64,000 nucleotides of DNA, taken from contig JBMNJO010000001.1 in NCBI GenBank assembly GCA_050951725.1, positions 924,967-988,966 of the forward strand, read 5' to 3'. This stretch comes from Syntrophomonadales bacterium. Its GTDB lineage: Bacteria > Bacillota > Syntrophomonadia > Syntrophomonadales > DTU052. The translations under genes were made by a program, and so were the position numbers. The notes below the pieces were generated by a model. The model searched no databases and was not told where the DNA came from. It worked only from the letters and a program-made list of their open reading frames with translations. Shown here piece by piece: positions 2,982 to 63,622 of this stretch (position 1 is its first letter; the number at the start of each line of letters is the position of its first letter).

Positions 2982-3806
2982 TCATCCCTGATTTGGTACC
3001 GGCTTATCGAGTTGGTGGTGTGCATCCGCCACCACCCGGGAAAGCATGGCATAATCAACGGTTTCTGTCAGTCCCTTCTTCAGATGGAAGAAGAACTCAA
3101 TGTTCCCATTGGGACCTTTGATGGGCGAATAGCAGGCGTTCACCAGGGCCAGTCCGCATTCCGATGCCTGCCGTGCCACTCGGTGCAAAACCTCTTCGTG
3201 AACTTCTGAACTCTTGACCACACCTTTTTTGCCCACTTGCTCACGTCCGGCCTCAAACTGGGGTTTGACCAGGGCCACCACCTCACCGTCATCGGTCAGC
3301 AGTCCGGCTGCCACCGGGAGAACCAGGCCCAAGGAGATAAAGGCTACATCAATGGTAATGAGGTCCATCTTCTCGGAGAAATCCTCCGGGGTCACGTACC
3401 TTATATTGGTGCGTTCGATCGTAGTAACCCGGGGGTCCTGGCGCAGGCTCCAGTCGAGCTGACCATACCCCACATCGACCGCATAGACCTTACGGGCGTC
3501 GTGCTGCAGGGCACAATCGGTGAACCCTCCGGTGGAAGCACCCACATCCATTACCACCTTATTCGCAAAATCCAGGTCCATTGCCTGGATGGCTCCCAGG
3601 AGTTTCAGCCCCCCGCGGCTGACAAAGTTCGGTCCATCATTGCCCAACACCCGGAGTTCGGAACCCTCGGGTATCTTCTGCCCCGGCTTTTCCACCCTCT
3701 GCCCATCCGCAAAGACCAGACCGGCCAGAATCAGGGCCCGCGCCTTTTCGCGGCTCGGGGCGAAACCCTCCACGTGCAATCTGATGTCAGCCCGTTCACC
3801 CGACAC
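2982..3806 (-). CDS. tlyA: TlyA-family rRNA 2'-O-methyltransferase (hemolysin A-like)
   Basis: 274 aa with an S4-like N-terminus, FVSRGGLKL, and an FtsJ-like SAM motif DVGASTGGFTDC. Confidence 0.85.
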   Translation of the reverse strand: MSGERADIRLHVEGFAPSREKARALILAGLVFADGQRVEKPGQKIPEGSELRVLGNDGPNFVSRGGLKLLGAIQAMDLDFANKVVMDVGASTGGFTDCALQHDARKVYAVDVGYGQLDWSLRQDPRVTTIERTNIRYVTPEDFSEKMDLITIDVAFISLGLVLPVAAGLLTDDGEVVALVKPQFEAGREQVGKKGVVKSSEVHEEVLHRVARQASECGLALVNACYSPIKGPNGNIEFFFHLKKGLTETVDYAMLSRVVADAHHQLDKPVPNQG

Positions 3807-5702: not shown

Positions 5703-6284
5703 TCACCTTCTTCCCTTAAAAAGCTCCATCCCGGTGAGGTTCTCCCACCATCTCAGGACTTCAGCCACTTTAAGGATGATCGAGTTGGCATTATTGATGG
5801 CAATACTCTTGCCTATGGTTTTTCCTCCTACCGTCACCGCCGCAATCAGACTGGTCATCGCTGCTCCCAGGAGTACAGTATCCACAACGGTAAACATGGA
5901 ATACCGGGCATAAAACGTATAAACTATAGAAGCGCCGATGGCTCCACTGAGGGTTCCGGCAATATCCCCCACCACATCGGCAGTTAAATTGGCTACCAGG
6001 TCCGCATTGCGGACAATCCTGACCGCCTGGCTGGCTCCGCGAATCTTCTTGGCAGCCATAGCGTTAAAAGGAACAACATCAGCCGCAGTAGCCGCAGTAC
6101 CGATGGCGTCGGAAACGATACCCGCCACCACCACCAGTCCCAGGGACAAAAAAGAAACAAAAAGATCCTGGACCGCATTGATGATCGACTCCAGGCCGAG
6201 GCTGATGATCAAGCCGGACATAAAGGTAAAAAACGTGATCCACAGGGCTGGTATAAATATGTTGCCTTCGGTGACCCTGGCCAA
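5703..6284 (-). CDS. oapA: OLE-associated membrane protein OapA
   Basis: 193 aa, multi-pass membrane protein with a TTG start, located immediately downstream of the OLE-like RNA and upstream of dxs. It contains a D-x-x-x-D motif (LTADVVGDIAG). Confidence 0.75.
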   Translation of the reverse strand: MARVTEGNIFIPALWITFFTFMSGLIISLGLESIINAVQDLFVSFLSLGLVVVAGIVSDAIGTAATAADVVPFNAMAAKKIRGASQAVRIVRNADLVANLTADVVGDIAGTLSGAIGASIVYTFYARYSMFTVVDTVLLGAAMTSLIAAVTVGGKTIGKSIAINNANSIILKVAEVLRWWENLTGMELFKGRR

Positions 6285-6299
6285 AAATACACTCCCTGA

Positions 6300-6890
6300 A
6301 TAAGTAGAATAAAGCGGAGGTTACCCCCTGAGTAAACGCTGTGACTTAGGTCCAGCAGGTTTTCCCGTTGAACATCCTGCTTGTCGCCAAGCAGGCGGTT
6401 TCCCTTTACGCTCAACCCGTGTTGTCGCCGTACACGAGGCTGGATTACCACTTAGTGCACACTTTAATCCCCAGAGGGTCGTGCCTGGCACACAGTCTAG
6501 GGGATTTCCCCGACAACCTCTACCAATTCTTAGCCTCTTTTGCAGCAGGGGTTTCAGAAGAGGGAAAACGGAACCGTGGCCATCGGTCTCCGTACCTCTA
6601 TAACTCATCCGCCCATACCACTCAAGGCAGGCTACACTGCACCCAGCTTCCTACCAGATGCAGGTTTTCCCGAAGGATTGCTCCTTCGAGCCTCCACGGG
6701 TGGGGGGTCAGTTCCCGCATGCCGTTGCAGGCTGCCCCGGCACCCTTAACTCCCAGCACCAACCCCCAACTGGGCGTTGAAAGCTGACACCAGAATCTTC
6801 ATCGATGTGCCCTATAACGGATTTTTAGGCCCGTCTTCAGAATTGGTGAGATTGACTAGAATACTGCAACCTCCACCCATAATTCTAATT
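6300..6890 (-). ncRNA. ole: OLE (ornate, large, extremophilic) RNA; ends approximate to about 40 nt
   Basis: About 590 nt with only short, mutually overlapping ORFs on both strands. The segment is GC-rich with dense local complementarity. It lies between a promoter and oapA, followed by dxs-tlyA-nadK-argR-recN, which is the known ole synteny. Confidence 0.75.
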
Positions 6891-11596: not shown

Positions 11597-11855
11597 ATCA
11601 TTATCTCCAGTCTTGGTTCATTAAAATGGTGTATATGCTGTTTCTGCTATTCCAGTATCGGAGTTCAGACTACCCCTAAATTCTATCATTAAATTGAGGG
11701 AGCGCAAATCAAGAACGAGCCGCTCCTCATCATGGCAACTGGGCGATTAACATTCATTCCGCGTTGGTTCCCTGCGAAAACAGATAACCCGTAAGGTTGG
11801 GTGCAGAATTATGCAGGAGTCTGTGCATGGTGTTAACGCCTGTTATCTTTCATTA

Positions 11856-15918: not shown

Positions 15919-16163
15919 AGCAACACTCCTTATCATTTGGCTCGGAAAATCTTTATCAGAAATGCACCTAAACGGCAATAAAGCTATCCTTGTTCATTCG
16001 ACAGGCGTTTAATATTCTCCTTCGCAAATGCCATTGAATGGTAAAGATAGTTCCATGATTAACCCACAACTTCTGGTTTGCCGCATAGCCTCACTAGCAG
16101 GAACTGGATGTACAGGTTGGGGACTGATAATCATGCCGCCAGACCTGGCGCTTTATGAGCAGT

Positions 16164-16190
16164 CAAAAAAACACCCGTTGACAGGTGTTG
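16164..16190 (-). terminator. intrinsic terminator closing the small-peptide transcription unit
   Basis: Minus-strand AACACCTGTCAACGGGTGTTTTTTTGA. Confidence 0.6.
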
Positions 16191-16401
16191 ATTGAAGAAC
16201 AAAAGATTATTCAGCAGATTCAAATGCGGTTGTTGGAGAGGTCAAAATCGACGAGTTCGCGATTTACATTTTGTTGTTGCCCGAGGTATATGCAAAAATA
16301 TAGGGATGGTACATGAATTTCGCCTTCCTACCATCCCCACATTCGTAAGGCTTTTTCCCGACATGGGTCTTAAGACGATATGTCAGCCCATTTAATAAAA
16401 A

Positions 16402-16539
16402 TCAGGACTTGTTACCGTCATATATACTGTTTACTCCGTATTTTCCTCCAACTTCCTTACCGCCTGATGCCTTTTCCAACTCAGTATCGGTAAGTATCAC
16501 AGTCCCGTTCTTGTCCTTGTCCTTATCCTTATCCGGCAC
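16402..16539 (-). CDS. 45-aa peptide with a double-glycine-type leader (candidate secreted or modified peptide)
   Basis: Below the ORF-track size cutoff. GTG start 5 nt after AAAGGGGTGA. Translation: MPDKDKDKDKNGTVILTDTELEKASGGKEVGGKYGVNSIYDGNKS. A TATAAT lies at 16582-16577. Confidence 0.5.
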   Translation of the reverse strand: MPDKDKDKDKNGTVILTDTELEKASGGKEVGGKYGVNSIYDGNKS

Positions 16540-16974
16540 TCTGATCACCCCTTTCGTTTAATCTCATCTTAATAAGATTATACGATAATTATTTGGAAGT
16601 AGCTCAAACGGCTTGAGAATAAAATACATTTCCGCCTTATAGATGGGGTTATTCCATATATTAATAGCATTGAAATGTTTACACCATATCGTCAATTCCG
16701 TCCAACTTAGTGAGAATATCTTTGGATGCAACTCTTGCACCGAATTCATTTATCTGGAAACAGGCGGGTTGAAAACGACTTGGCAAAAGAATCAGGTGAA
16801 AGAGTCTCCTTGACCCGTACCTGGAATGGTGCCAGAAAAACATTACAGACCCTTACAATCGGAAGACCTTTTGAGAGAATGGAATTCGGATATCTTCGAT
16901 GATATCGCCGTTCATCCGGTTGCCGTGTCGGGACCCTTCAGGCCCGAGGAACCAGAGGTTAATGATTTATAACA

Positions 16975-17623: not shown

Positions 17624-17890
17624 TCACCATCCCACCTTTTTCAGGTACTGCATGGGTATCAATTCCTCAATCCTTTTAATCAGGGAGTCCATTTCCATCC
17701 GAATCTCCCGGATACGGGCATCAAGTTCTTCGGGTTGGCAACCCAGGTCCTCTATACGCTGGTGGACCTGCTCCAGGTCTTTCTTCAGCACCTCGTATCG
17801 GGCCAAGGCCCGGTTCCGGTCATTGCTGGCGTCTTTTAATGCTTTCTCCAACTTCTTAATACGGGCATCGTAAGATTCTTTTTCCAACAA
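17624..17890 (-). CDS. 88-aa coiled-coil protein (middle piece of the split Rad50-like protein)
   Basis: Heptad-rich sequence (KKLEKALKDASNDRNRALARYEVLKKDLEQVHQRIEDL). TTG start after GTGGGGGTG. Confidence 0.6.
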   Translation of the reverse strand: MLEKESYDARIKKLEKALKDASNDRNRALARYEVLKKDLEQVHQRIEDLGCQPEELDARIREIRMEMDSLIKRIEELIPMQYLKKVGW

Positions 17891-18028: not shown

Positions 18029-19360
18029 CTATAAGATCTCCCGGCGGATACGGGCAATGGTGTCCTGGTTTATCTCGGCGAAACAGGTGGGACATCTCCC
18101 GGCATTCTGCAGGAGGTCACCGTATTCGTCAGCAAGGGTTCGGGCCCGTAAATCGACCTTCTCCAGTTCCTGCTGGGCCTTCTTAACCCCCTCCTCAGCT
18201 TTATGCCAGTTGCCAATGATGTTCTGAAATAATCCCAGACGCGTTAAAAGCGTTAAGGAGTCCTGAATCGCTTGTTCCGCTCCGTCAAGATCTTCCAGTG
18301 ATGCAATTATGGCTGCATAATTCTTCATTTCCTCTGATTTCTGCTTTCGTTCTTTCTCCAGTCCTGCCAGTTCCTTGCGGGTGGCCTGTAACTCAAAGCC
18401 CTCCTGTCTCAGGGTCTTCATCTTATCCAGGTACTCCTCAGTCTTTTCCAGTCCCTGGGTAGAGTCGATAGTCAGGTCACAGATCTTCAGTTCTTCCAGG
18501 GTATGGTTTCGCTGTTGCTGCAGATTACGGATCTCCTCCAGTACGCGCATCAGCCTGGCTATCTCCGCCTGGTTTGTATAGGCCTCATCAAGATGATCGA
18601 GCTGCTCCAGGGCCTCCTTGATTTCTGTCATCTGCTGCCGGGTTTGTCTCAGGGTATTCCGTGCCTCTTCCAAGATCCTGACTTCCCGGTCCAGTTCCGA
18701 GAACCGCTTCAGCAACTGTTCCAGGCTTTCCAGCCGGGTCTCCTCCTCTTCCAGATTGGCATAGTTCTGAAGCTGCTGGTCCAGTAACTCGATATCACCC
18801 TCTAAACGGCTGATCTCGTGAAGTGCCTGGGAGGTATCCCTCAGAGTGTCGCGCTGGGCGGCGTCAATGATGTGCAGGTTGGCCATGCGGCCCAGGATCT
18901 TGGAACGGGTGGTACCTGACTCCTCGAGCAGGAAAGGGGCCTCCAACTGGCTGGCCAGGTTTATCTCCACCGCCCGGTCACGGTCGATGACCAGTTTGGA
19001 GATGTCCAGGGCCTTTCTTACCTCCAAGGGCACTTCCTTGTTGAACCGTTCAAAAACCAAGACCTCCTCGCCCGGGACCTCCAGGATATACCGGTTGACC
19101 CGGCTGCTCTCATCACGGATTCTCTCCACTGCCACCCCGTTGCTCAATTCCACCCGTACCTCGCACCGGGTCTCACCAACCCTGATAAAGCCGGTACCTC
19201 TAGGTTCATTATAAACCAACCAGCGCAGGGCGCGGACAATGGCAGACTTCCCCTGATCAGAGGGACCAACGATTATGTTAAGCCCCGGAGTGAACTCAAA
19301 GTCTGTTTCCCGGTGAGACTGGAAGTTCCTCAGTCGCAGTCTTTTTATGTAGGTCTTCAT
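18029..19360 (-). CDS. Rad50/SbcC-like ATPase, N-terminal piece (Walker A, coiled coil, zinc hook)
   Basis: 443 aa with Walker A GPSDQGKS, a Q-loop region QLEAPFLL, a long coiled coil, and a C-terminal hook GRCPTCFAEI. The ATGA start overlaps the mre11-like stop. Confidence 0.8.
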   Translation of the reverse strand: MKTYIKRLRLRNFQSHRETDFEFTPGLNIIVGPSDQGKSAIVRALRWLVYNEPRGTGFIRVGETRCEVRVELSNGVAVERIRDESSRVNRYILEVPGEEVLVFERFNKEVPLEVRKALDISKLVIDRDRAVEINLASQLEAPFLLEESGTTRSKILGRMANLHIIDAAQRDTLRDTSQALHEISRLEGDIELLDQQLQNYANLEEEETRLESLEQLLKRFSELDREVRILEEARNTLRQTRQQMTEIKEALEQLDHLDEAYTNQAEIARLMRVLEEIRNLQQQRNHTLEELKICDLTIDSTQGLEKTEEYLDKMKTLRQEGFELQATRKELAGLEKERKQKSEEMKNYAAIIASLEDLDGAEQAIQDSLTLLTRLGLFQNIIGNWHKAEEGVKKAQQELEKVDLRARTLADEYGDLLQNAGRCPTCFAEINQDTIARIRREIL

Positions 19361-20346
19361 CGCAAATCTCCCCGTCCCAGAAGTGATTCTTCCGCCTCAG
19401 CGATTCGTCTCAAGGCCTCCAGGCGGACCTCCTCACTAAGGTTCTCCGCCTTGGCCAGTTCGCTTATTATCTGACCGACATTCCAACGTCTCAGTTCTGT
19501 GGCTTCCTTTACCTCCCGGGTGAAACTCTCCATCGCCAGAACCCGGGTCTCCATCTCCTCCACCCGGGTGCGGTCCAGGACCTCCTCTCCTGGAGGTGCT
19601 GACTGCAGGGGGATCAAGCGGCAGTTCACCGCCCCACCTGTAAGGTCAATCAGTGCCACCTTCACTTTCCGCTCAATCTCCCGGTGATGGTTGCTGAGGC
19701 GGACCAAGGCCCCCGGGTTCACATAGTGACGGTCTCCCCGCTGAAGGGCGCCATAACCCAGGTGATAGTGCCCGGAAAGCACCAGGTCGGCACCAGAGTT
19801 CCCCAGATCATCGATCAGGGTATAATCACCCGGGAACTGCTGTCTATCAAGCAGCATCCCGTGAATCAGGTGTATGGTAAGATCGCTCTCTGTATCCTTC
19901 TCCACGCAGTAGTCCAGATGGCGGGGACGCCGGTCAATATCCAGATGATACGGCTGCCCAATGAGGCAGGCCCTGATCCCGCCAGCCTCCAGCCTCACAC
20001 TCTCAGAAGGTCCTAACAAGCGGAAAAATCCCATCCGAGCTGTGAAACCCAGCACGGTACGCGGCAGCGTCTGCAGATTGCCGCCAAAAATGTCGTGGTT
20101 TCCAGCAACCCCATAGAGAGGGACCCTGAGCTCCCGTATTATCTCCAGAAAATCAGCGGCCACAGACAGTGCCGGATTCGGAGTATCAAAAAAGTCTCCC
20201 CCATGCAGCACATAGTCAACCTGGTAGTCATTGGCCAGCCTGACTACTTCCGCCAGCTTTTCTTTCAAGGCAGACAGCAGATTGTCCTTCCGGTTGACCG
20301 GTGAATTCCCCCGGAAATGTGAATCCGTAAAAAACAAAATCCTCAT
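19357..20346 (-). CDS. Mre11/SbcD-like metallophosphoesterase nuclease
   Basis: About 329 aa. Phosphoesterase motifs DSH, GGDFFD, GNHD and GHYH, plus a helical C-terminus. Confidence 0.8.
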   Translation of the reverse strand: MRILFFTDSHFRGNSPVNRKDNLLSALKEKLAEVVRLANDYQVDYVLHGGDFFDTPNPALSVAADFLEIIRELRVPLYGVAGNHDIFGGNLQTLPRTVLGFTARMGFFRLLGPSESVRLEAGGIRACLIGQPYHLDIDRRPRHLDYCVEKDTESDLTIHLIHGMLLDRQQFPGDYTLIDDLGNSGADLVLSGHYHLGYGALQRGDRHYVNPGALVRLSNHHREIERKVKVALIDLTGGAVNCRLIPLQSAPPGEEVLDRTRVEEMETRVLAMESFTREVKEATELRRWNVGQIISELAKAENLSEEVRLEALRRIAEAEESLLGRGDLR

Positions 20347-20609
20347 CAAACTACACCCCTATACATATGGGACACGGGGACAGGTGCCCTGTCCCGCTTT
20401 TGCCCTACTAATTCGGGGACACCCTAATGAATCTCCATTTGGGGGACATCATACTAAATTTTCTATTACTTGAGGAAAGAGAATTTGGTATGGCGTCCCC
20501 CAAATAGACACCTCTATCAAGTAGAACGTAAACCTGGCTCCCCACTCCAGACAAACCGTCCTCCGTTATTGATTCTCACTACAACGCACGGCTTCCTCCC
20601 TCTTTACAT

Positions 20610-22463
20610 CTAATTCCGTGTAGGAAGGCGGTAGACCGTTACAAAGACGTTGTCTTCTTTTACCAGTTCCCCCTTCTGCACCATCTGCCCCAGCAGGCTG
20701 TTGATCTCCGCCCGGCTCATGGGCGTACCCCGCCGCTCCAGTTCCTGCAGGACATCGTTAATGTAGGTTTCATTGAGCGGCAGGTATTTCGTAAGTACCG
20801 ACCGGAACTCGCTGGCCCGGGAATCGGCCATCACTTCAAGCTCATCAAAGGGGTTGTCCTGGTGAGGACTGCGGGTTTTGGCGGCCCTGATTCTGACTGC
20901 CACGGTTCGCCCCACGATCGGTGATGAAATAAAGCCGTAACCGGAGGTAAGGTAGGGCAGACGCCGGATTTCTTCGCGACCCAGGTCAGTTTCTTCACTT
21001 ATAACCGACAGGTCCATGGATCTGACGGTGCGGAAGATAATCTTGGTATTGAGCTGGGCATTTATCGTATCATCTAGCAGGGCCGGCCGCTGACTGGCCA
21101 GAACCAGGAACACTCCGTATTTTCTGCCTTCCTGAGCGATTTCCCGGAACTCACGCAGTGAGGGAGAGGAATGATCACCTTTGGGCGCAAAGTTGTGAGC
21201 CTCATCAGTTACCACCAGGAATGGAGGAAAACTTGCGGCCGACTGCCCCTTCTGCAGGGCATCCCGGTATTCCCGCCGTTTACCATAGAGGTTTCGCAAT
21301 ACATATGAGGCATACACCCGCAACATCCTGATCGAGCCCCGGATCACGGTAACCTGCTGGTTTCGCAGTCCTTCCTCTATCCGGGTAATCCCGGCCTCGT
21401 GAAAGATACCTTCCCGTTTCAGGCTGTAGAGTCTCCAGCGGACTGCCCTCAGGCTGGCAGGTTGGCCCACCTGGTTCTGCAGGACCTTAAGCCGTTTCCA
21501 TTCCCGCTCCCGCTCCGGTCCACTCCCCCGGTTGAAGAACTCCTGCCGGTAGTCAGCCTCGTTATTCTCCAGCAGTCCGATCAGGTTGTCCAACCGTTCG
21601 GCAAAGGTGGTTAAACTGTCCTTTTTCAGGAGTACCGCCCGGGCGGCTGATTCCATGGCTTCACTGAGCGGGCTGACCGCTCCCAGCAGGTTGCACAGAT
21701 CACCCTCAGTAAGCATATCGAACCGTACCCCGATGTCCTGTCCCACAGTCAGGATCTGAAAACAGGAATCAAAAGACTCCTTAAAACCAGCAGGCAGGTC
21801 AGGCAGAAGCGGCTCAGAAAAACTCATCTCGTAGTGCGGGTCAAATACGATAACCGGCAGTCTCTTCTTCATGAATTCCTCAATCAGCACCCGGACCCCA
21901 AATGACTTGCCGGAACCGGACCCGCCAAAGATCCCGATGTGGGGATAGTCCTGCATGCTGCGGTAATCCAGCAGGAAAGGTACCCCCTGCTGCTCCACCA
22001 TCTTTCCCTCCTGAAACAGAGGGGCCAGGTGGCGTAAATAATCCGGTAGCGTCGGGTCCAGGGTCTCCGTACCCAGTATGACCCCCAGGGCCATAGACCG
22101 TTCCGGTTCCGCCTGCAGCAGAAGGTCCGCCACCTCCGTAAAATCAGGGACCCGGGCGCAAGACCCGGTTTTGACAGGATAGAAGAGCTCGCTGATGACC
22201 CTGATTTTACCCAGGTAAACTGTATCCCGCTCCAGTTCGTATCCAACCGCCTGCAATGCCGACACGATCTCGTGCCCCATCAGATACGGGGAACCCTCAT
22301 CAACCAGCGGCACCAGGGGATTAAGGGAGTAGGTCTCCACCACCTCGCCTACCGCGGTTTCCGGAGTATGCCCCTCCATGACCAGGAGCTCATTCAGCCG
22401 GAAAGGCCGGTCCTTACTGGCCACCCAGACATCTCGTTCATTGGTCCTCCCCACGACCTGCAC
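20610..22463 (-). CDS. HerA-like (FtsK/HerA superfamily, DUF87) ATPase
   Basis: 617 aa with Walker A GGSGSGKS, Walker B VVTDEAHNF, the LASQRP motif, and a winged-helix-like C-terminus. Confidence 0.8.
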   Translation of the reverse strand: MQVVGRTNERDVWVASKDRPFRLNELLVMEGHTPETAVGEVVETYSLNPLVPLVDEGSPYLMGHEIVSALQAVGYELERDTVYLGKIRVISELFYPVKTGSCARVPDFTEVADLLLQAEPERSMALGVILGTETLDPTLPDYLRHLAPLFQEGKMVEQQGVPFLLDYRSMQDYPHIGIFGGSGSGKSFGVRVLIEEFMKKRLPVIVFDPHYEMSFSEPLLPDLPAGFKESFDSCFQILTVGQDIGVRFDMLTEGDLCNLLGAVSPLSEAMESAARAVLLKKDSLTTFAERLDNLIGLLENNEADYRQEFFNRGSGPEREREWKRLKVLQNQVGQPASLRAVRWRLYSLKREGIFHEAGITRIEEGLRNQQVTVIRGSIRMLRVYASYVLRNLYGKRREYRDALQKGQSAASFPPFLVVTDEAHNFAPKGDHSSPSLREFREIAQEGRKYGVFLVLASQRPALLDDTINAQLNTKIIFRTVRSMDLSVISEETDLGREEIRRLPYLTSGYGFISSPIVGRTVAVRIRAAKTRSPHQDNPFDELEVMADSRASEFRSVLTKYLPLNETYINDVLQELERRGTPMSRAEINSLLGQMVQKGELVKEDNVFVTVYRLPTRN

Positions 22464-22481
22464 TGAATAACACTCTCCCCT

Positions 22482-23462
22482 CTACAGCCCGCGTCGCTCG
22501 CGGTTGGCAGTAAAAAACCTCTCCCTCACCAGAGGATCCAGACCGTTCATTATCACCGTTTCCATGGATTTACGGGTCAGCCTGACCTCCCGGTCGACCA
22601 GATCAAGCCACGCTGGAATGCCCCTACCCTGGGAAGGGGTTAACGAATAGATTAGATTCATAGCTGGCAGCAGGAACTCCCCCTGCTCCGCCAGGAAGTC
22701 ACAGGCAACTGCCTGGGGTGTGCTGCCCATACGGGCAAACACTGTGGTATAATTCCGCTTGATCGCGCTCTCCCCACCCAGAGCCACCATTTCACCCACC
22801 TCAAGGAGCCCGAACAGGAATTCACGATCATATATACGCAGACCCGGCACCTCCAGCCCGGTCAGTGAACAGAGCTCAGCAGTGGCGACCTCTTCGATCA
22901 CCCCGACCAGTATACAGTTGTGAGTTCGAGCCTCACTGACCAGTAACTCCCATTCGGGAAAGCGGTCAAACAACAAAAAGCCCCCATCAAGCATGATCAT
23001 GAAGGGCTTAAATGTTTGCAGGGCGTTCAAGGCCAGTCTTATTTCCATGTGAGCCATCTTCTCGCCCATCAGGCGGCGGTATGCCTCACTATCCTCCAGC
23101 CGGTTCTTGACGGCGAACTCACTTACTTCCGTGCTCAGTTCAGGATCAAAAGGGCAATAAATCTCGGAACCACTCAACTGGTTAGGTTCACCCTTGATAC
23201 TTCCCTTGGCCAAGGCCTGAACCAGGCAGACGGTATAAGGATAAAGGCCTCCGTAATCAGCCCGTGAGCCATCGACGGCTATCAAGGTCCGTCCCCCGGT
23301 CAACTCTACAATTTCCCAACGGTTAAGCCGCTGCAGAAAGCCGAAATCTGCAAGCATACGCAGTCTCTGGCGCCGGGTTTCCAGGGAAGGACAGAGGGAA
23401 TCACGATGGAGGAAATATTCGTTCAGGCGTCGGGTGGCGGCGAGAACCTCGTGGTTTAGCAT
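22482..23462 (-). CDS. NurA-like nuclease
   Basis: About 326 aa with acidic motifs IAVDGS, IMLDGGF and GVIEEV. It lies directly upstream of herA with an 18-nt gap. Confidence 0.7.
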   Translation of the reverse strand: MLNHEVLAATRRLNEYFLHRDSLCPSLETRRQRLRMLADFGFLQRLNRWEIVELTGGRTLIAVDGSRADYGGLYPYTVCLVQALAKGSIKGEPNQLSGSEIYCPFDPELSTEVSEFAVKNRLEDSEAYRRLMGEKMAHMEIRLALNALQTFKPFMIMLDGGFLLFDRFPEWELLVSEARTHNCILVGVIEEVATAELCSLTGLEVPGLRIYDREFLFGLLEVGEMVALGGESAIKRNYTTVFARMGSTPQAVACDFLAEQGEFLLPAMNLIYSLTPSQGRGIPAWLDLVDREVRLTRKSMETVIMNGLDPLVRERFFTANRERRGL

Positions 23463-23584
23463 TTTCAACCTCGCCCGGATTTTTCCTTATTATATATTAA
23501 CCTCCGACCCCGTTCAATTACCTGCTAAACACCCAGGGACGTTAAGTCATCATGAGATGAAGCTGTTCAGCTTGCAGGGAAACT

Positions 23585-23810
23585 TAAGCATGATTCCCCG
23601 CGAAAACCCAGGAGGCGGTTGGCGTAGCATGGTAGCAACGGTGAAGGCTCACGGCGAAAGGGGGCGAGCCCCATGGACGGGGCGAGAGGGCCACTGAACA
23701 CGGACATGAATTGGCCCGGTGCCCCATTCGTCGTGAGACAAGCAGTTGGTGTTGCCCATGTGAAGTCTGGCGACGAATATTTATGCATCCAAACTCCGAA
23801 TCGCAACTTT
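23585..23810 (-). repeat. structured intergenic repeat, copy E2 (strand tentative)
   Basis: Shares the GTTTGGATGCATAAATATTCGTCGCCAGACTTC terminus and internal blocks with the other copies. It is bracketed by a perfect 13-nt direct repeat, TTGCAGGGAAACT, at 23572-23584 and 23811-23823. Confidence 0.6.
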
Positions 23811-23910
23811 TTGCAGGGAAACTATTAACTCGTTTGCAAACGCAGGAGCCAAGCTCATTCGATTGCTGGACGAGCCGGATGAACGGATGGTGTCCAAAAA
23901 GGAAGGACGG

Positions 23911-45690: not shown

Positions 45691-45732
45691 TTTGTGCCAC
45701 TGATTACCCTGCCAAAAGTAATAATCTCTTAC

Positions 45733-45790
45733 GTTTGGATGCATAGATATTCGTCGCCTGACTTCGCATGATGGAACACCATCCAAAAGG
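45733..45790 (+). repeat. structured intergenic repeat, truncated copy E3 (one terminal module only)
   Basis: GTTTGGATGCATAGATATTCGTCGCCTGACTTCGCATGATGGAACACC matches most of the terminal ~50 nt of copy E2 (by-eye alignment). The similarity then stops. Confidence 0.5.
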
Positions 45791-45917
45791 GTTTCGCCCG
45801 AGGAATCACCGATGCCTCCCGTTTACAAAGAATAACATTATACAAACCGTGGAATTTTGGAATCCTATCCTTCAGGAACAGTTATCACTACATTCATGGT
45901 TACGGGAGGCAGAGGAC

Positions 45918-59388: not shown

Positions 59389-59570
59389 CCACCATTCCCC
59401 CTTTCTGTAGTAATGATACCTTAATTTCCCGGAAAGCACACCCCCTTCCTGCTGTACCAGACAGGCGGGAACTACGGTCAAAGTGGGACAGGGAAACAGG
59501 TTCGCTGACCTGCTTTTCCGAAAGCAGCAGGACTGTAACAGGTACTTTCCGATTAAATCTTGAGTCTAGA

Positions 59571-59773
59571 GCCTGCGCAAAATTCCGGTGAGCGGACGTT
59601 GTATCCGAACGCCGCCGCACCCTGCTGAGCGACGGTGGAAATCAACCAAGCGACAGGACGCGAGATAAGTTTTTGTGACATGGACGAATAGAAGGAGTGA
59701 TGCTCGCCACCTGAACCTGAGCATTTGGCGTTACCAGTGCAGGACCCAGGAACGAACGGAATTTGCGCACGCC
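59571..59773 (-). repeat. structured intergenic repeat, copy R4 (strand inferred from wobble pairs)
   Basis: 203 nt. The terminal arms GCCTGCGCAAAATTCCG and CGGAATTTGCGCACGCC pair with each other. It is closely similar to copy R5 throughout. Confidence 0.65.
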
Positions 59774-59854
59774 GCTGCACATGAAGCCAGCTGTAGTCCT
59801 CCGCCCAGCATTCAATATTGAACAGTGAACTCGTCCCCTGTCCCACCTGCTGGT

Positions 59855-61870
59855 CTACCGTGAGAGGTTTTTCCACCAGTCCAACAGTTTCTGAATGCGG
59901 GGAATGGTTTTGCTTTCGTCGGTGGTATCTTCGTTCCCGCCCAACCAGTTTTCCCAGTTCCACCAGTAGTCCTGTTCCTGGTGCTCGTAACAGATTTGCT
60001 GGGGTTCGCTGCCGGTTAGGAACGCGGCTTCTATAGTGCGGGGACAGTTTTCGGTGGCAATCAACCCGGTATCAAGGTCAATCCGGGCCCTTACAATTCC
60101 CTGGGGTACCCTGAACTCCGATCGGGGCTGGTCTTCGAGAGCGGCCCCCATGAAACGGGCCCAAATAGGGCCGGCTATTCTGCCGCCGGAAAGGCCCACC
60201 GACCTGGCCTGTGAGTCATATCCCACCCATACGGCACAACTTAGTAACGGGGTATAACCGACAAACCAGGCATCGCGGTATTCCTGCGTGGTTCCGGTCT
60301 TGCCGGCTGAGGGACGTCCCACAGTGGAAGCCAAGTGAGACCCGGTTCCCCCGGACTGCATGACACCGGTAAGCATATCTGTGGTAATATAGGCATTTTG
60401 CGGGCTGATTATCTGCTCGGTTTGAGGCTCATTGGTTTCCAGGACCCGACCGTCAGCATCGGTCACCTTGAGAACAGCCACCGGTGTGACCAGTCGTCCA
60501 TCATTGGCGAACACTCCATAAGCAGAGGCCATCTCCAAAGGGCTTACCTCTGAGGTACCCAAAGCCAGTGACAAATATGGTTTTATCGGCCCCTCAAACC
60601 CAAATTTTCTGGCATGTTCGGCGGTCCTTTCCGGGCCTACCGCCTCATTTAACCTCACCGAAACAACGTTGTCGGAAACCATAATTGCTTCCTTCAAGGT
60701 GAATGGGCGGTAATGATACCCCTCATCTCCATAGTCAGTCGGCGCATAATCTGGTGCGCCCTTCTGCGGAAAACTCACTGGTTCACACATTATCATGTCA
60801 GCCGCAGTCAGACCCACATCGATGGCTTTGGAATAGAGGAATGGCTTGAATGCAGATCCCGGCTGCCGTTTGCTGTCCACCGCCCGGTTAAAAGGTGCGG
60901 TAACAAAGTCCCGTCCCCCAATCATCGCCCGAATATGGCCATTACTGGGATCAACCGCCACCAGGGCTGCCTGCAGCTCGTCGTTCTGGCTGGACAAGAC
61001 CTCATCATATGCTTGCTGCGCTTTTCGCTGCATGTCCAGGTCCAGGGTAGAAAAGACCCTCAGTCCCCCTCCGTAAGCCACAGCCGCCCCATACTTTTCT
61101 ACCAGATAATCGGCCACCATTTGTGAAAAATAGGGGGCGTCCCCACGGAGCGCCCCAGTTTTACGGTACTTCAGTTCCTCAGCGACGGCTGCTTCTTTCT
61201 CTTGCTCTGTAATAAACCCGAGTTCAACCATCTGGCTGAGTACCACCTGCTGCCTGGTCTTGGCGTGTTCCGGATAGCGATAAGGATCATAATAACTCGG
61301 CCGCCGCGGGATAGAGGCGATGATAGCACTTTCTGCCAGGCTCAGCTCCCGGGCCGGTTTGCCGAAGTAGGTTCTGGCAGCGGCCTCTATGCCGGTGGCT
61401 CCCTGTCCAAAGTAGATGGAATTAAGGTACATGGTAAAAATCTCATCCTTTGAAAAACGCCTCTCGAGGGCCATGGTATAGAACAGTTCTTTGAATTTGC
61501 GCACAAAGGTCCGCTCATGAGTCAAATACAGATTTTTAGCGGTTTGCTGGGTGATGGTGCTGCCACCCTCGGTCACCCGCCGGTTCTTGATGTTTACCCA
61601 GGTGGCTCGGGCCAGGGCCCGGGGATCAATCCCGATATGACTGTAAAAATTTCGGTCCTCGGTGGCGATGAATGCCTTTTCCACATAATCCGATATCTCG
61701 TCTAGACTAACCTGGTTTTGATTTTGGGGGTTTAGGCTTTTGATCTCCTGCCCATTGATATCATAGAGGATTGAGGGCTCTGGCATCCGCAGTCCCGGAA
61801 GTCCCCAATTGAACCCCAGGATGGCAACCAGTCCCAACAGCAGGATGATAACCAGTATGATTCTTTTCAC
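59855..61870 (-). CDS. class A penicillin-binding protein (PBP1A: transglycosylase/transpeptidase)
   Basis: 671 aa with an N-terminal TM segment, GT51 motifs (EDRNFYSH, GGSTITQQ), and transpeptidase motifs SAFKP and KTGTT. Confidence 0.9.
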   Translation of the reverse strand: MKRIILVIILLLGLVAILGFNWGLPGLRMPEPSILYDINGQEIKSLNPQNQNQVSLDEISDYVEKAFIATEDRNFYSHIGIDPRALARATWVNIKNRRVTEGGSTITQQTAKNLYLTHERTFVRKFKELFYTMALERRFSKDEIFTMYLNSIYFGQGATGIEAAARTYFGKPARELSLAESAIIASIPRRPSYYDPYRYPEHAKTRQQVVLSQMVELGFITEQEKEAAVAEELKYRKTGALRGDAPYFSQMVADYLVEKYGAAVAYGGGLRVFSTLDLDMQRKAQQAYDEVLSSQNDELQAALVAVDPSNGHIRAMIGGRDFVTAPFNRAVDSKRQPGSAFKPFLYSKAIDVGLTAADMIMCEPVSFPQKGAPDYAPTDYGDEGYHYRPFTLKEAIMVSDNVVSVRLNEAVGPERTAEHARKFGFEGPIKPYLSLALGTSEVSPLEMASAYGVFANDGRLVTPVAVLKVTDADGRVLETNEPQTEQIISPQNAYITTDMLTGVMQSGGTGSHLASTVGRPSAGKTGTTQEYRDAWFVGYTPLLSCAVWVGYDSQARSVGLSGGRIAGPIWARFMGAALEDQPRSEFRVPQGIVRARIDLDTGLIATENCPRTIEAAFLTGSEPQQICYEHQEQDYWWNWENWLGGNEDTTDESKTIPRIQKLLDWWKNLSR

Positions 61871-62262: not shown

Positions 62263-63237
62263 ATGATCAAGACCTATTTTTATAAGCATGCCGATAATTC
62301 CATGTATCATGACGTCGACCTTTCTCTTTTGGATGTTCTCCTTTCTGACCAGGAAAACCTGTTGTGGATCGACCTCTATGACTGTTCGGTTCAGGAACTG
62401 ACTTATATCGGCAAGGTATTCAGTTTCCATCCCCTGGCCCTGGAGGACTGTCTCCAGGAGAGCCCGCGCGCCAAGGTTGACCACTACGAGGATTACAGTT
62501 TTTTCGTATTCCACGCCATGAAGTACAACGAAGAGGCTGAGGATGACGAGATAACCAGCATTGAACTGGATGTATTCCTGGGCACCAATTACGTGGTGAC
62601 CATCCACCCCACCGCACTCTACGCGGTCGGCGAAATCGCCCGGGTAAGCCTCAGGAAACCGGAAATGATGAACCGGGGACCTGATTACCTCCTCTATAAT
62701 ATTGTTGATAAATTGGTTGATGATTATTTCCCCATCGTTGAGCGATTGGGGGAGAGGATTGATGAACTGGAAGACGAGATGTATGTACACCCGGCCAAAG
62801 AGATTACGGAAGAAATTATGGCCCTCAAACGCTCCATTATCCTCTTACGAAAAGTTGTAATCCCGCAGCGCCGGATACTGGCCAATGTCAACAACCGGTA
62901 CTCATTTTCGGTTAGCGACGAGAACCGCCCCTATTACTATGACCTGGTGGAGCACCTGGACCGGATTATCGACGCCTCGGATGCCTACCGGGATCTGGTT
63001 AACGGCTCGATCAACACCTACTATTCAGTAGTATCCAGCCGTACCAACGAGATCCTGATGGTGCTGACAGTTATCTCCACCATCATGATGCCTCTGACCT
63101 TCATCACCGGACTTTACGGCATGAATGTCCATATCCCGGGACAGGATAACCCTTACTACTTCTGGTACATCGCGCTCGGCTGCGTCACCCTCATAGCCAC
63201 CATGCTGGCCACCTTCCGCCGCAAAAAATGGATATAA
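62263..63237 (+). CDS. corA: CorA-family magnesium/cobalt transporter
   Basis: 324 aa with the YGMN motif followed by two C-terminal TM helices. Confidence 0.9.
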   Translation: MIKTYFYKHADNSMYHDVDLSLLDVLLSDQENLLWIDLYDCSVQELTYIGKVFSFHPLALEDCLQESPRAKVDHYEDYSFFVFHAMKYNEEAEDDEITSIELDVFLGTNYVVTIHPTALYAVGEIARVSLRKPEMMNRGPDYLLYNIVDKLVDDYFPIVERLGERIDELEDEMYVHPAKEITEEIMALKRSIILLRKVVIPQRRILANVNNRYSFSVSDENRPYYYDLVEHLDRIIDASDAYRDLVNGSINTYYSVVSSRTNEILMVLTVISTIMMPLTFITGLYGMNVHIPGQDNPYYFWYIALGCVTLIATMLATFRRKKWI

Positions 63238-63250
63238 GAAATGGGACAGA

Positions 63251-63276
63251 GGGACAGATCTACTGTCCCATTTTTT
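63251..63276 (+). terminator. intrinsic terminator after corA
   Basis: GGGACAGATCTACTGTCCCATTTTTT. Confidence 0.8.
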
Positions 63277-63288
63277 GCTGCAGCTAAG

Positions 63289-63499
63289 GCCTGCGGTAAA
63301 TTCCGGTGAGCGGATGTTGGGTCCGAACTGTGCAACACCCTGCGAAGCTGAAGATGGAAAGCAGCCGAGCGACACGAGGTCGCGAGATAAGCCTTTTAGA
63401 CATGGACGTCGATTAGGCGGGGTGCTGCTTTCCACCTGAATCTAAGCAGTTGGTGCTGCCAGCGCAGGACCCAGGAAGCGAACGGAATTTACCGCAGGC
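63289..63499 (-). repeat. structured intergenic repeat, copy R5 (best preserved; strand inferred from wobble pairs)
   Basis: 211 nt with a perfect 17-bp terminal stem, GCCTGCGGTAAATTCCG / CGGAATTTACCGCAGGC. An internal 14-bp helix joins 63352-63365 and 63424-63437. Confidence 0.7.
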
Positions 63500-63622
63500 C
63501 GACGCGCGCGTAACCAGTAAACTCCCCGCACCAAGAAAACGGAAACAAGGGATCCAAGCCCCTTGCTTCCATATCCTGCATTGCATCACGGGGACAGTCC
63601 CCGTGATGCAGTTTGCTTCCGT

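Follow-up and report, generated by a model that had tools for sequence, protein, structure and literature searches.

The window analysed here is a stretch of 64,000 nucleotides from a Syntrophomonadales bacterium (contig JBMNJO010000001.1, positions 924,967 to 988,966), and our subject is a family of long, structured hairpin elements of which several copies lie in it. Near its right end, a corA gene (62263-63237, +) stands between a yyaC (DUF1256) gene and the gene of a class A penicillin-binding protein (PBP), PBP1A. This arrangement is found only in the source organism and in its closest relatives, L098 and L099 (handles of this kind denote individual loci); corA is absent from the related loci L094-L097 and is thus a lineage-specific gene insertion adjoining the element. 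The gap between corA and yyaC holds R5 (63288-63500, +), a full copy that scores 141 bits with R1, a covariance model of the family with 136 positions and 41 pairs.

In the sense given by the + strand of R5, each complete copy forms a long rod, about 190-280 nt across the family, in which a terminal inverted repeat (P1, 17-25 bp) is followed by helices P2, P3 and P4 and by a three-way junction with two hairpins, A and B. In R5, P1 is a perfect 18-bp terminal inverted repeat (63288-63305 / 63483-63500); an earlier note on this DNA had described it as a perfect 17-bp stem, which was correct as to the pairing and not as to the length. P2 (63317-63325 / 63465-63474) leads to P3, which joins GCAACACCCUGC (63332-63343) to GCAGUUGGUGCUGC (63446-63459), and to tandem G.A pairs at 63350-63351 / 63438-63439 (UGAA/UGAA). 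P4 (63352-63365 / 63424-63437) lies where a 14-bp internal helix had been reported and consists of 13 Watson-Crick pairs and one A.C. Two tip hairpins are seen as well: hairpin A (63369-63383), the previously described GCGAC-loop-GUCGC hairpin, with the loop ACGAG, and a composite hairpin B (63391-63418) with the loop AUGGAC at 63402-63407. On its 3' side the rod continues into a non-palindromic tail (63501-63545, +; GGCCGNCGC...CTCC.CCGCACC), which R5 has in common with a second copy, R4, and with a solo fragment in L098. Alignments read directly extend the homology of these three beyond the hairpin, by about 28 nt on its 5' side and by about 45 nt on its 3' side. Since this homology runs past the inverted repeat, the boundary of the element lies outside the hairpin and the unit is not exactly the palindrome.

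Within the window, the R1 covariance model recovers four copies that bear the core, namely R5, E2, R4 and E1. R4 (59571-59774, +; 74 bits) is a decayed copy of the same type as R5, with 78% identity over 213 nt (E 3e-41). Both of its tip hairpins have 3-nt deletions, P4 is broken and the minimum free energy (MFE) is just -68.6 kcal/mol. Public gene calls place a 107-aa open reading frame (ORF) with no Pfam hit over R4 (L001 7291-7614, -; ~59550-59870 of the window), probably a spurious call due to the repeat. The remaining copies are of a second type, E. E2 (23590-23823, +; 91 bits) carries the loops AUGGAC (23673-23678) and ACGGAC (23700-23705); its outer inverted repeat is GATTCCCCGCGAAAAC / TTTTTGCAGGGAAAC and its inner repeat is without a left arm. 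E1 (2784-2976, -; 62 bits) lies in the opposite orientation in the spacer between a tlyA-like and a NAD-kinase gene; it has a 25-bp terminal inverted repeat (GTTTGNATGNATAAGTATTG, 88% complementary), a degenerate tip and a remnant of the outer repeat at 2756-2772. E3 (45701-45808, -) has lost the three-way-junction core to an internal deletion, with one inner arm and the two outer inverted repeats remaining. An additional copy, E6, is found 8.6 kb past the end of the window (L001:19646-19881), and the 8.6 kb walked beyond its left end contained no new one. In about 82 kb of the source organism there are six copies or remnants. All copies are intergenic. The multi-copy structured family proposed in the earlier note is therefore real: R4, E1 and E2 are homologous copies, E3 is an internally deleted one, and E1, E2 and E3 find one another by nhmmer (1e-13 to 1e-7). 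A further candidate that it had listed as possible, at 11700-11850, was rejected, its only resemblance being a 17-nt match to the outer repeat.

The R and E types are only about 50-65% identical overall. Nonetheless, after copies from other genomes were added, nhmmer cross-hits join them (E6 vs L073, 8.7e-8; R5 vs L068, 5.4e-6), and the single R1 model recovers both. P3 is nearly invariant across the family (GCAACACCCUGC / GCAGUUGGUGYUGC), with A and UU bulged out. The loops of the tip hairpins read A-Y-GGA-Y, with a 5-nt loop instead in R-type hairpin A. For hairpins A and B in that order, they are ACGAG and AUGGAC in R5; AGGAG and AUGGAU in a group of near-identical R-type copies from other genomes, called R'; AGGAG and AUGGAG in L096; AUGGAC and ACGGAC in E2; AUGGAU and CUGGAU in E6; AUGGAU and ACGGAU in L065; ACGGAU in both hairpins of L059; and ACGGAU and AUGGAC in L085. 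Tandem G.A pairs in P4 are confined to the R type, the corresponding position being CGAG/CGAG in R' copies and Watson-Crick paired in the E type. E-type copies carry extra repeats, an inner one (GTTTGGATGCATAAATATTCG), whose left arm is absent from E2 and E6, and an outer one (GATTCCNCTGCNAAAA / TTTTNGCAGNGGAATC). From its letters, the outer repeat appears to correspond to P1 of R5 (CCTGCGAAAACTTC in E6 vs CCTGCGGTAAATTC in R5). A longer E-type variant, seen in L085 (9598-9904, -) and L086, accommodates additional hairpins (about 100 nt) between P3 and its junction and keeps the loops ACGGAU and AUGGAC.

R5 folds with an MFE of -107 kcal/mol on the + strand (z -7.7) and -108.9 on the - strand (z -10.6), against means of -69 and -63 for shuffled sequences, and none of 200 shuffles folds as well. 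RNAalifold applied to 12 copies returns 27 pairs, 13 of them with compensated changes. Covariation was tested on a model-based alignment of 15 distinct copies. Here 76.5% of pair cells hold standard pairs, compared with 30-53% when the 3' partner is slid by 1-3 columns. Double-sided changes affect 25 of the 41 pairs, compared with 13.2 in column shuffles (0/500 reach 25), and the covariation score is 0.283, compared with 0.115 when shuffled and at most 0.125 when slid. Read directly, the four positions at which P1 differs between R5 and the R' copies are all compensated on the partner arm, and P3 of the divergent L096 copy contains two compensated pairs. The fold is maintained by compensatory change, and the observation in the earlier note that the helices differ in sequence yet stay complementary is borne out by the RNAalifold and R1 alignments.

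The strand that carries the AYGGAY loops is the more stable one, by 2-22 kcal/mol, in 13 of the 15 copies, the only exceptions being R4 and R5. Tandem G.A pairs, purine-purine mismatches able to stack, and GGA loops form on this strand only, and all Rfam matches lie on the strand that is + for R5. The minus strand had been favoured previously as the functional sense; that argument was built on R4 and R5, the sole stability exceptions among the 15 copies, and is not supported, the Rfam matches and the GGA loops being on the plus strand.

The closest known structure is TwoAYGGAY (RF01731), for which Rfam sets a gathering score of 43 bits. When the whole window was scanned at gathering thresholds, only OLE and a tRNA were matched, with no TwoAYGGAY. 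Weaker matches came from narrow scans in E-value mode and were lost in a whole-locus scan owing to filters and search-space size. In the narrow scans TwoAYGGAY was the best Rfam match for four copies, in each case over the full model (1-168) and on the same strand: L059 (37.9 bits, E 8.8e-5), L065 (26.5 bits, E 0.035, the sole match listed), R5 (25.4 bits on +, E 0.09) and E2 (21.5 bits on +, E 0.52). Six narrow scans gave no match at E up to 10 to HEARO, IS605-orfB, retron, group II, riboswitch or ribozyme models. TwoAYGGAY is described as having two AYGGAY terminal loops and a frequently very large P1, for example of 24 bp (Weinberg 2010 supplement), and tandem G.A pairs in a stem (PMC4333381). 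It occurs in multiple copies in one genome (Psychromonas ingrahamii NC_008709) and its published rating is "probably an RNA, not cis-regulatory".

The family has the same anatomy: a three-way junction, two adjacent A-Y-GGA-Y hairpins, a very long closing stem and tandem G.A pairs. The closing stem is represented by the perfect 18-bp P1 of R5 and the 25-bp repeat of E1; two adjacent AYGGAY hairpins are present in the E-type copies E2, L065 and L059, while R5 has the loop on hairpin B only. The junction letters are also alike, with GCA/AG-hairpin A-UAAG-hairpin B-CUGG/UGC in TwoAYGGAY vs GGGGC/GAG-hairpin A-CGAGAG-hairpin B-CGG/UGCCCC in E2, so that both precede hairpin A with ..GC/(G)AG, separate the hairpins by (G)AG and follow hairpin B with CGG/UGC. 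Like TwoAYGGAY, the family is found in Clostridia, in several copies per genome and in no fixed gene neighbourhood. It differs from the motif in its P3 block (GCAACACCCUGC / GCAGUUGGUGYUGC), which is missing from the Rfam consensus, in a rod lengthened by inverted-repeat modules (an inner and an outer repeat in the E type), and in the copy gain, loss and decay documented for it in Syntrophomonadaceae. The family is, in our reading, a diverged variant of this known orphan motif and not an unclassifiable RNA; we consider its kinship with TwoAYGGAY likely. The earlier note had been unable to classify it and had named a significant match to a known RNA family as the result that would speak against its view; because L059 matches TwoAYGGAY at E 8.8e-5, such a match has now largely been obtained, with TwoAYGGAY the best Rfam match for four copies and the defining anatomy in common.

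We next consider the distribution of the family. The nearest proteins to PBP1A from the window come from Syntrophomonadaceae metagenome-assembled genomes (MAGs), and the window locus itself was found only in JGI and Logan metagenome contigs. A two-block pattern scan with one genome per species returned 24 loci, eight of which hold real elements, all in Syntrophomonadaceae or unclassified Bacillota MAGs: L059, L065 and L068 in Syntrophomonas spp. and a Syntrophomonadaceae MAG, L072 and L073 in Syntrophothermus sp. UBA1445, and L061 and L080 in Bacillota MAG130 among them. A metagenome scan added L083, L092 and L087, and the longer variant of L085/L086. Together the two scans gave about 12 usable new copies, from Syntrophomonadaceae MAGs or metagenome contigs of unassigned origin, and the remaining hits were due to chance. 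Likewise, 51 viral-contig hits to a conserved 17-mer were set aside as chance, none showing further similarity to the element. Searches by blastn gave no match with R5 against plasmids and phages, with an E-type copy against plasmids, or with the Psychromonas TwoAYGGAY sequence against plasmids.

Comparison of these loci reveals how the family behaves in genomes. R' copies that are 89-96% identical occur with unrelated flanks within one MAG (L061, L080) and within one contig (L083, L092), L072 and L092 being one locus in two genomes. Orthologous regions were compared in relatives whose PBP is 69-88% identical. At the R5 site the yyaC(DUF1256)/corA gap measures 385 nt in the window vs 29 nt in L098, which is empty; the extra block of about 330 nt includes other hairpins, and the boundaries of the insertion are not clean. 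At the R4 site the gap between the PBP gene and a metallo-beta-lactamase (MBL) gene measures 373 nt in the window vs 91 nt in L095 and 66 nt in L096, both empty, and the same gap in L098 holds only a 26-nt 3'-end fragment in the opposite orientation (GAAGCGAACGGAATTTACCGCAGGCC). At the E6 site, between RNase J and DnaD-like genes, the element is absent in L094-L097. L096 has a diverged copy of its own at another site (17699-17881). The 12 other copies neighbour unrelated housekeeping genes (purN/purH, acyl-CoA dehydrogenase, Ku, TrkH, an ABC (ATP-binding cassette) substrate-binding protein and others). The family has thus been gained, lost, amplified and degraded in the manner of a non-autonomous mobile repeat. 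In the source organism, one copy is sense to its neighbours, four are antisense and one is convergent, a mixed orientation which agrees with the earlier view that a single cis-regulatory role is unlikely. Equally, domain scans of window ORFs of about 90 aa or more found no transposase, reverse transcriptase, TnpB, IscB or integrase domain, as that view had also held. What cannot be kept is its opposition of a selected fold to a miniature inverted-repeat transposable element (MITE), a false dichotomy given that covariation occurs together with empty sites, dispersed copies that are 89-96% identical and decayed copies.

The ends and surroundings of the copies show further repeats. R' copies end CTAG...CTAG and E1 is flanked by TA...TA, which may mean that TA was duplicated within a CTAG target or that these letters belong to the repeat; CTAG/TATAG as such is not taken for a target duplication, since every R' copy keeps CTAG at its two ends. 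Direct repeats at E2 (13 nt) and L065 (10 nt) are inconsistent in length. At E2, the flanks 23572-23584 and 23811-23823 are identical over 13 nt (TTGCAGGGAAACT), a direct repeat that overlaps the outer inverted repeat on the right; the 10-nt repeat of L065, ATTACTTTTT, is similarly placed and adjoins an isolated mini-hairpin consisting of only the outer repeat. These arrangements suggest a shorter REP-like hairpin that encloses E-type copies. A 14-bp perfect palindrome, TGCATCACGGGGAC/GTCCCCGTGATGCA (63582-63610), lies about 80 nt away from R5, and a near-identical hairpin, GCATCACGGGGACTTTCCCCGTGATTC, abuts the R' copy of L083 (~515-540), an unrelated metagenome contig; this hairpin may be a second small repeat family travelling with, or targeted by, the element. 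R4 is bracketed by GGGACAG-type inverted repeats, GTGGGACAGGG / CCCTGTCCCAC (59483-59493, 59836-59846), 342 nt apart, and the same type of motif forms the corA terminator beside R5 (63243-63269). The site orthologous to that of R4 in L099 (~3360-3470; PBP 88% identical) holds another near-perfect palindrome of about 105 nt composed of repeated GACACAAGGGGAC units.

On this evidence, the family is probably a non-autonomous hairpin repeat that proliferates, with a TwoAYGGAY-type junction as a conserved core under selection on one strand; its spread as a mobile repeat we hold to be probable in its own right. No enzyme is encoded beside any copy. We infer that the element owes its spread to a trans-acting function encoded elsewhere. 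Several observations weigh against this picture. All TwoAYGGAY scores (21.5-37.9) are under the gathering score of 43, and by the Rfam rule no copy qualifies; R4 and the R' copy L080 have no Rfam match at all in narrow scans. R-type hairpin A has a 5-nt loop, ACGAG or AGGAG, instead of AYGGAY, and GGA is lost from that of R5. The covariation statistics are optimistic, coming from about 15 distinct copies of few lineages in an alignment fitted to the model, and counts of 14 G.U vs 31 A.C cells give no preference to the AYGGAY strand, in an alignment with E-type hairpins partly misaligned. Over all loci the AYGGAY strand is sense to co-directional neighbours in four cases and antisense in nine, and R5 itself, flanked by the corA and yyaC terminators that face each other, has no sigma-70-like promoter. 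Target-site duplications are not consistent, with none at R5, R4, E2, L059, L068 or L085, and next to the 12 other copies there is no integrase, HUH, TnpA, TnpB, IscB, reverse transcriptase or transposase gene. Finally, csrA, which the mechanism considered below would involve, was not seen in about 0.4 Mb of DNA searched, less than the whole genome.

The plainest alternative is that the element is a MITE without any RNA role: it would derive from a DNA transposon by deletion, and a transposase encoded elsewhere would act on its terminal inverted repeats to move it, with the hairpin as a by-product of palindromic origin and TwoAYGGAY itself such a repeat. Much of what was observed would follow: long terminal inverted repeats, dispersed copies with 89-96% identity, empty orthologous sites and decayed copies, mixed orientation beside unrelated genes, and the position of R5 in a terminator-flanked zone with no promoter found. 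The CTAG...CTAG ends of R' and the TA...TA of E1 would also fit a TA duplication within a CTAG target, of the kind seen in IS630-type elements; nevertheless, R5, R4, E2 and the other E copies show no consistent duplication. A transposase needs the ends only, whereas the parts most conserved between subfamilies that are about 50-65% identical are the junction, the loops and P3, and internal helices covary with compensated arm changes that transposase recognition alone would not lead one to expect. Moreover, no ORF-bearing element with the same ends was seen in the window or in the flanks of the 12 other copies, and the homology of R4, R5 and the L098 fragment passes the inverted repeat. We regard a plain MITE as the less likely account, while giving it more weight than the alternatives that follow.

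A further alternative is a single-stranded DNA element whose conserved fold a recombinase or HUH-type enzyme would recognise as a DNA hairpin, much as with attC sites, REP/RAYT or IS200/IS605 ends. Such an element would explain the strand-specific folding (one strand folds better in 13/15 copies), the absent target duplications and the boundaries outside the hairpin, with tails past the palindrome and no consistent target-site duplication. E-type copies do lie inside a shorter hairpin repeat, GATTCCNCTGCNAAAA / TTTTNGCAGNGGAATC, which also occurs alone beside L065, and their inner ends, GTTTGGATGC...GCATCCAAAC, resemble attC cores, whose consensus is RYYYAAC/GTTRRRY, but for one extra base. 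In integrons, however, attC sites measure 60-140 nt against 190-280 nt here, and the present copies, whose ends (GTTTGGAT/ATCCAAAC) carry that extra base relative to the cores, are isolated among housekeeping genes with no integrase and are not arranged as a cassette array. In length the elements exceed REPs 5-10 times, the window and the neighbourhoods of the 12 other copies encode no integrase, HUH, TnpA or TnpB domain, and IS605-orfB and HEARO were unmatched in Rfam at E up to 10, which makes this account improbable. Just as improbable, in our estimate, is that each copy is a stand-alone small RNA (sRNA) gene, its own transcription unit making a trans-acting RNA that titrates CsrA. TwoAYGGAY was rated "probably an RNA, not cis-regulatory" and proposed as a CsrA sponge (PMC4333381), and terminators isolate R5 on both sides. 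Yet R5 has no promoter-like site, many copies (R4, E1, E3) are decayed, and no conserved promoter travels with the element, because the homology of the near-identical R' copies stops at the hairpin ends.

Returning to a mobile repeat with a selected core, we asked what the core might do as RNA. If a copy were transcribed on the AYGGAY strand, the rod would present a pair of hairpins with GGA loops, spaced by about 25-30 nt; a CsrA dimer prefers this geometry and sequence, and transcripts would then bind or titrate CsrA. We put this step forward tentatively and think it unlikely as things stand; CsrA binding is nevertheless the sole functional hypothesis with literature support and would be the leading idea at the RNA level. 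Gardner and Eldai proposed TwoAYGGAY as a CsrA-binding sRNA of Clostridia (PMC4333381), and the motif is assigned to Rfam clan CL00106, of RNAs that bind Csr-Rsm proteins. The consensus from systematic evolution of ligands by exponential enrichment (SELEX) with CsrA is RUACARGGAUGU, with GGA in a hairpin loop (PMC4347634). Hairpin B of R5 reads ACAUGGACGU and may be compared with ACARGGAUGU, a resemblance in sequence only. As in CsrB, RsmY and RsmZ, GGA is displayed in hairpin loops with flanks near the CsrA consensus, and two predicted sites are spaced for one dimer; the differences are that each copy has two sites, not many, and that the family is a dispersed repeat with no promoter or terminator signature in place of one or few regulated genes. 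In Firmicutes, the known CsrA antagonist is a protein, FliW.

Among known repeats, bcr1 of the Bacillus cereus group, ERIC and Correia elements are palindromic multi-copy elements about 100-300 bp long that lie between genes; repeats of this type are polymorphic in presence/absence, and in some cases compensatory changes preserve an RNA fold. Compared by description and not by sequence, the present family is likewise intergenic, palindromic and multi-copy, and differs in having no defined target duplication and a conserved internal three-way junction common to a motif in other phyla. To a more speculative possibility we assign little likelihood. TwoAYGGAY-class structures might be the cargo of a self-spreading element that seeds two-site CsrA-type hairpins between genes, or the junction might be the recognition structure of a mobilisation machinery not yet described. 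If they are cargo, post-transcriptional control could be rewired or buffered wherever the module is transcribed.

The window contains other features outside the family. A full-length OLE RNA (RF01071, 484.6 bits; 6301-6888, -) adjoins the gene of a CNNM-like membrane protein (5703-6284); its presence identifies the source organism as an anaerobic Firmicute. About 1 kb (15979-16974) upstream of a fused solute-binding/permease ABC transporter gene has neither an ORF of at least 70 aa nor an Rfam match. An inverted repeat with 31-nt arms (84% complementary) and a 13-nt loop (20434-20508), unrelated to the R/E family, lies in the spacer between Mre11-like phosphoesterase (19357-20349) and HerA-like (20610-22463) genes, in a run of Rad50/Mre11/HerA/NurA-like genes (18029-23468).

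TwoAYGGAY has been an orphan motif since 2010, with CsrA binding as its only functional idea, proposed for Clostridia, in which no Csr sponge RNA is known. The diverged branch described here widens its alignment with many compensated pairs, and L059, L065, E2 and R5 provide concrete copies for binding and expression tests. For the annotation of Syntrophomonadaceae MAGs, these repeat hairpins of 200-280 bp may break assemblies and create spurious ORFs. The motif can behave as an amplifying and decaying genomic repeat, which changes how its "no consistent gene context" is to be read.

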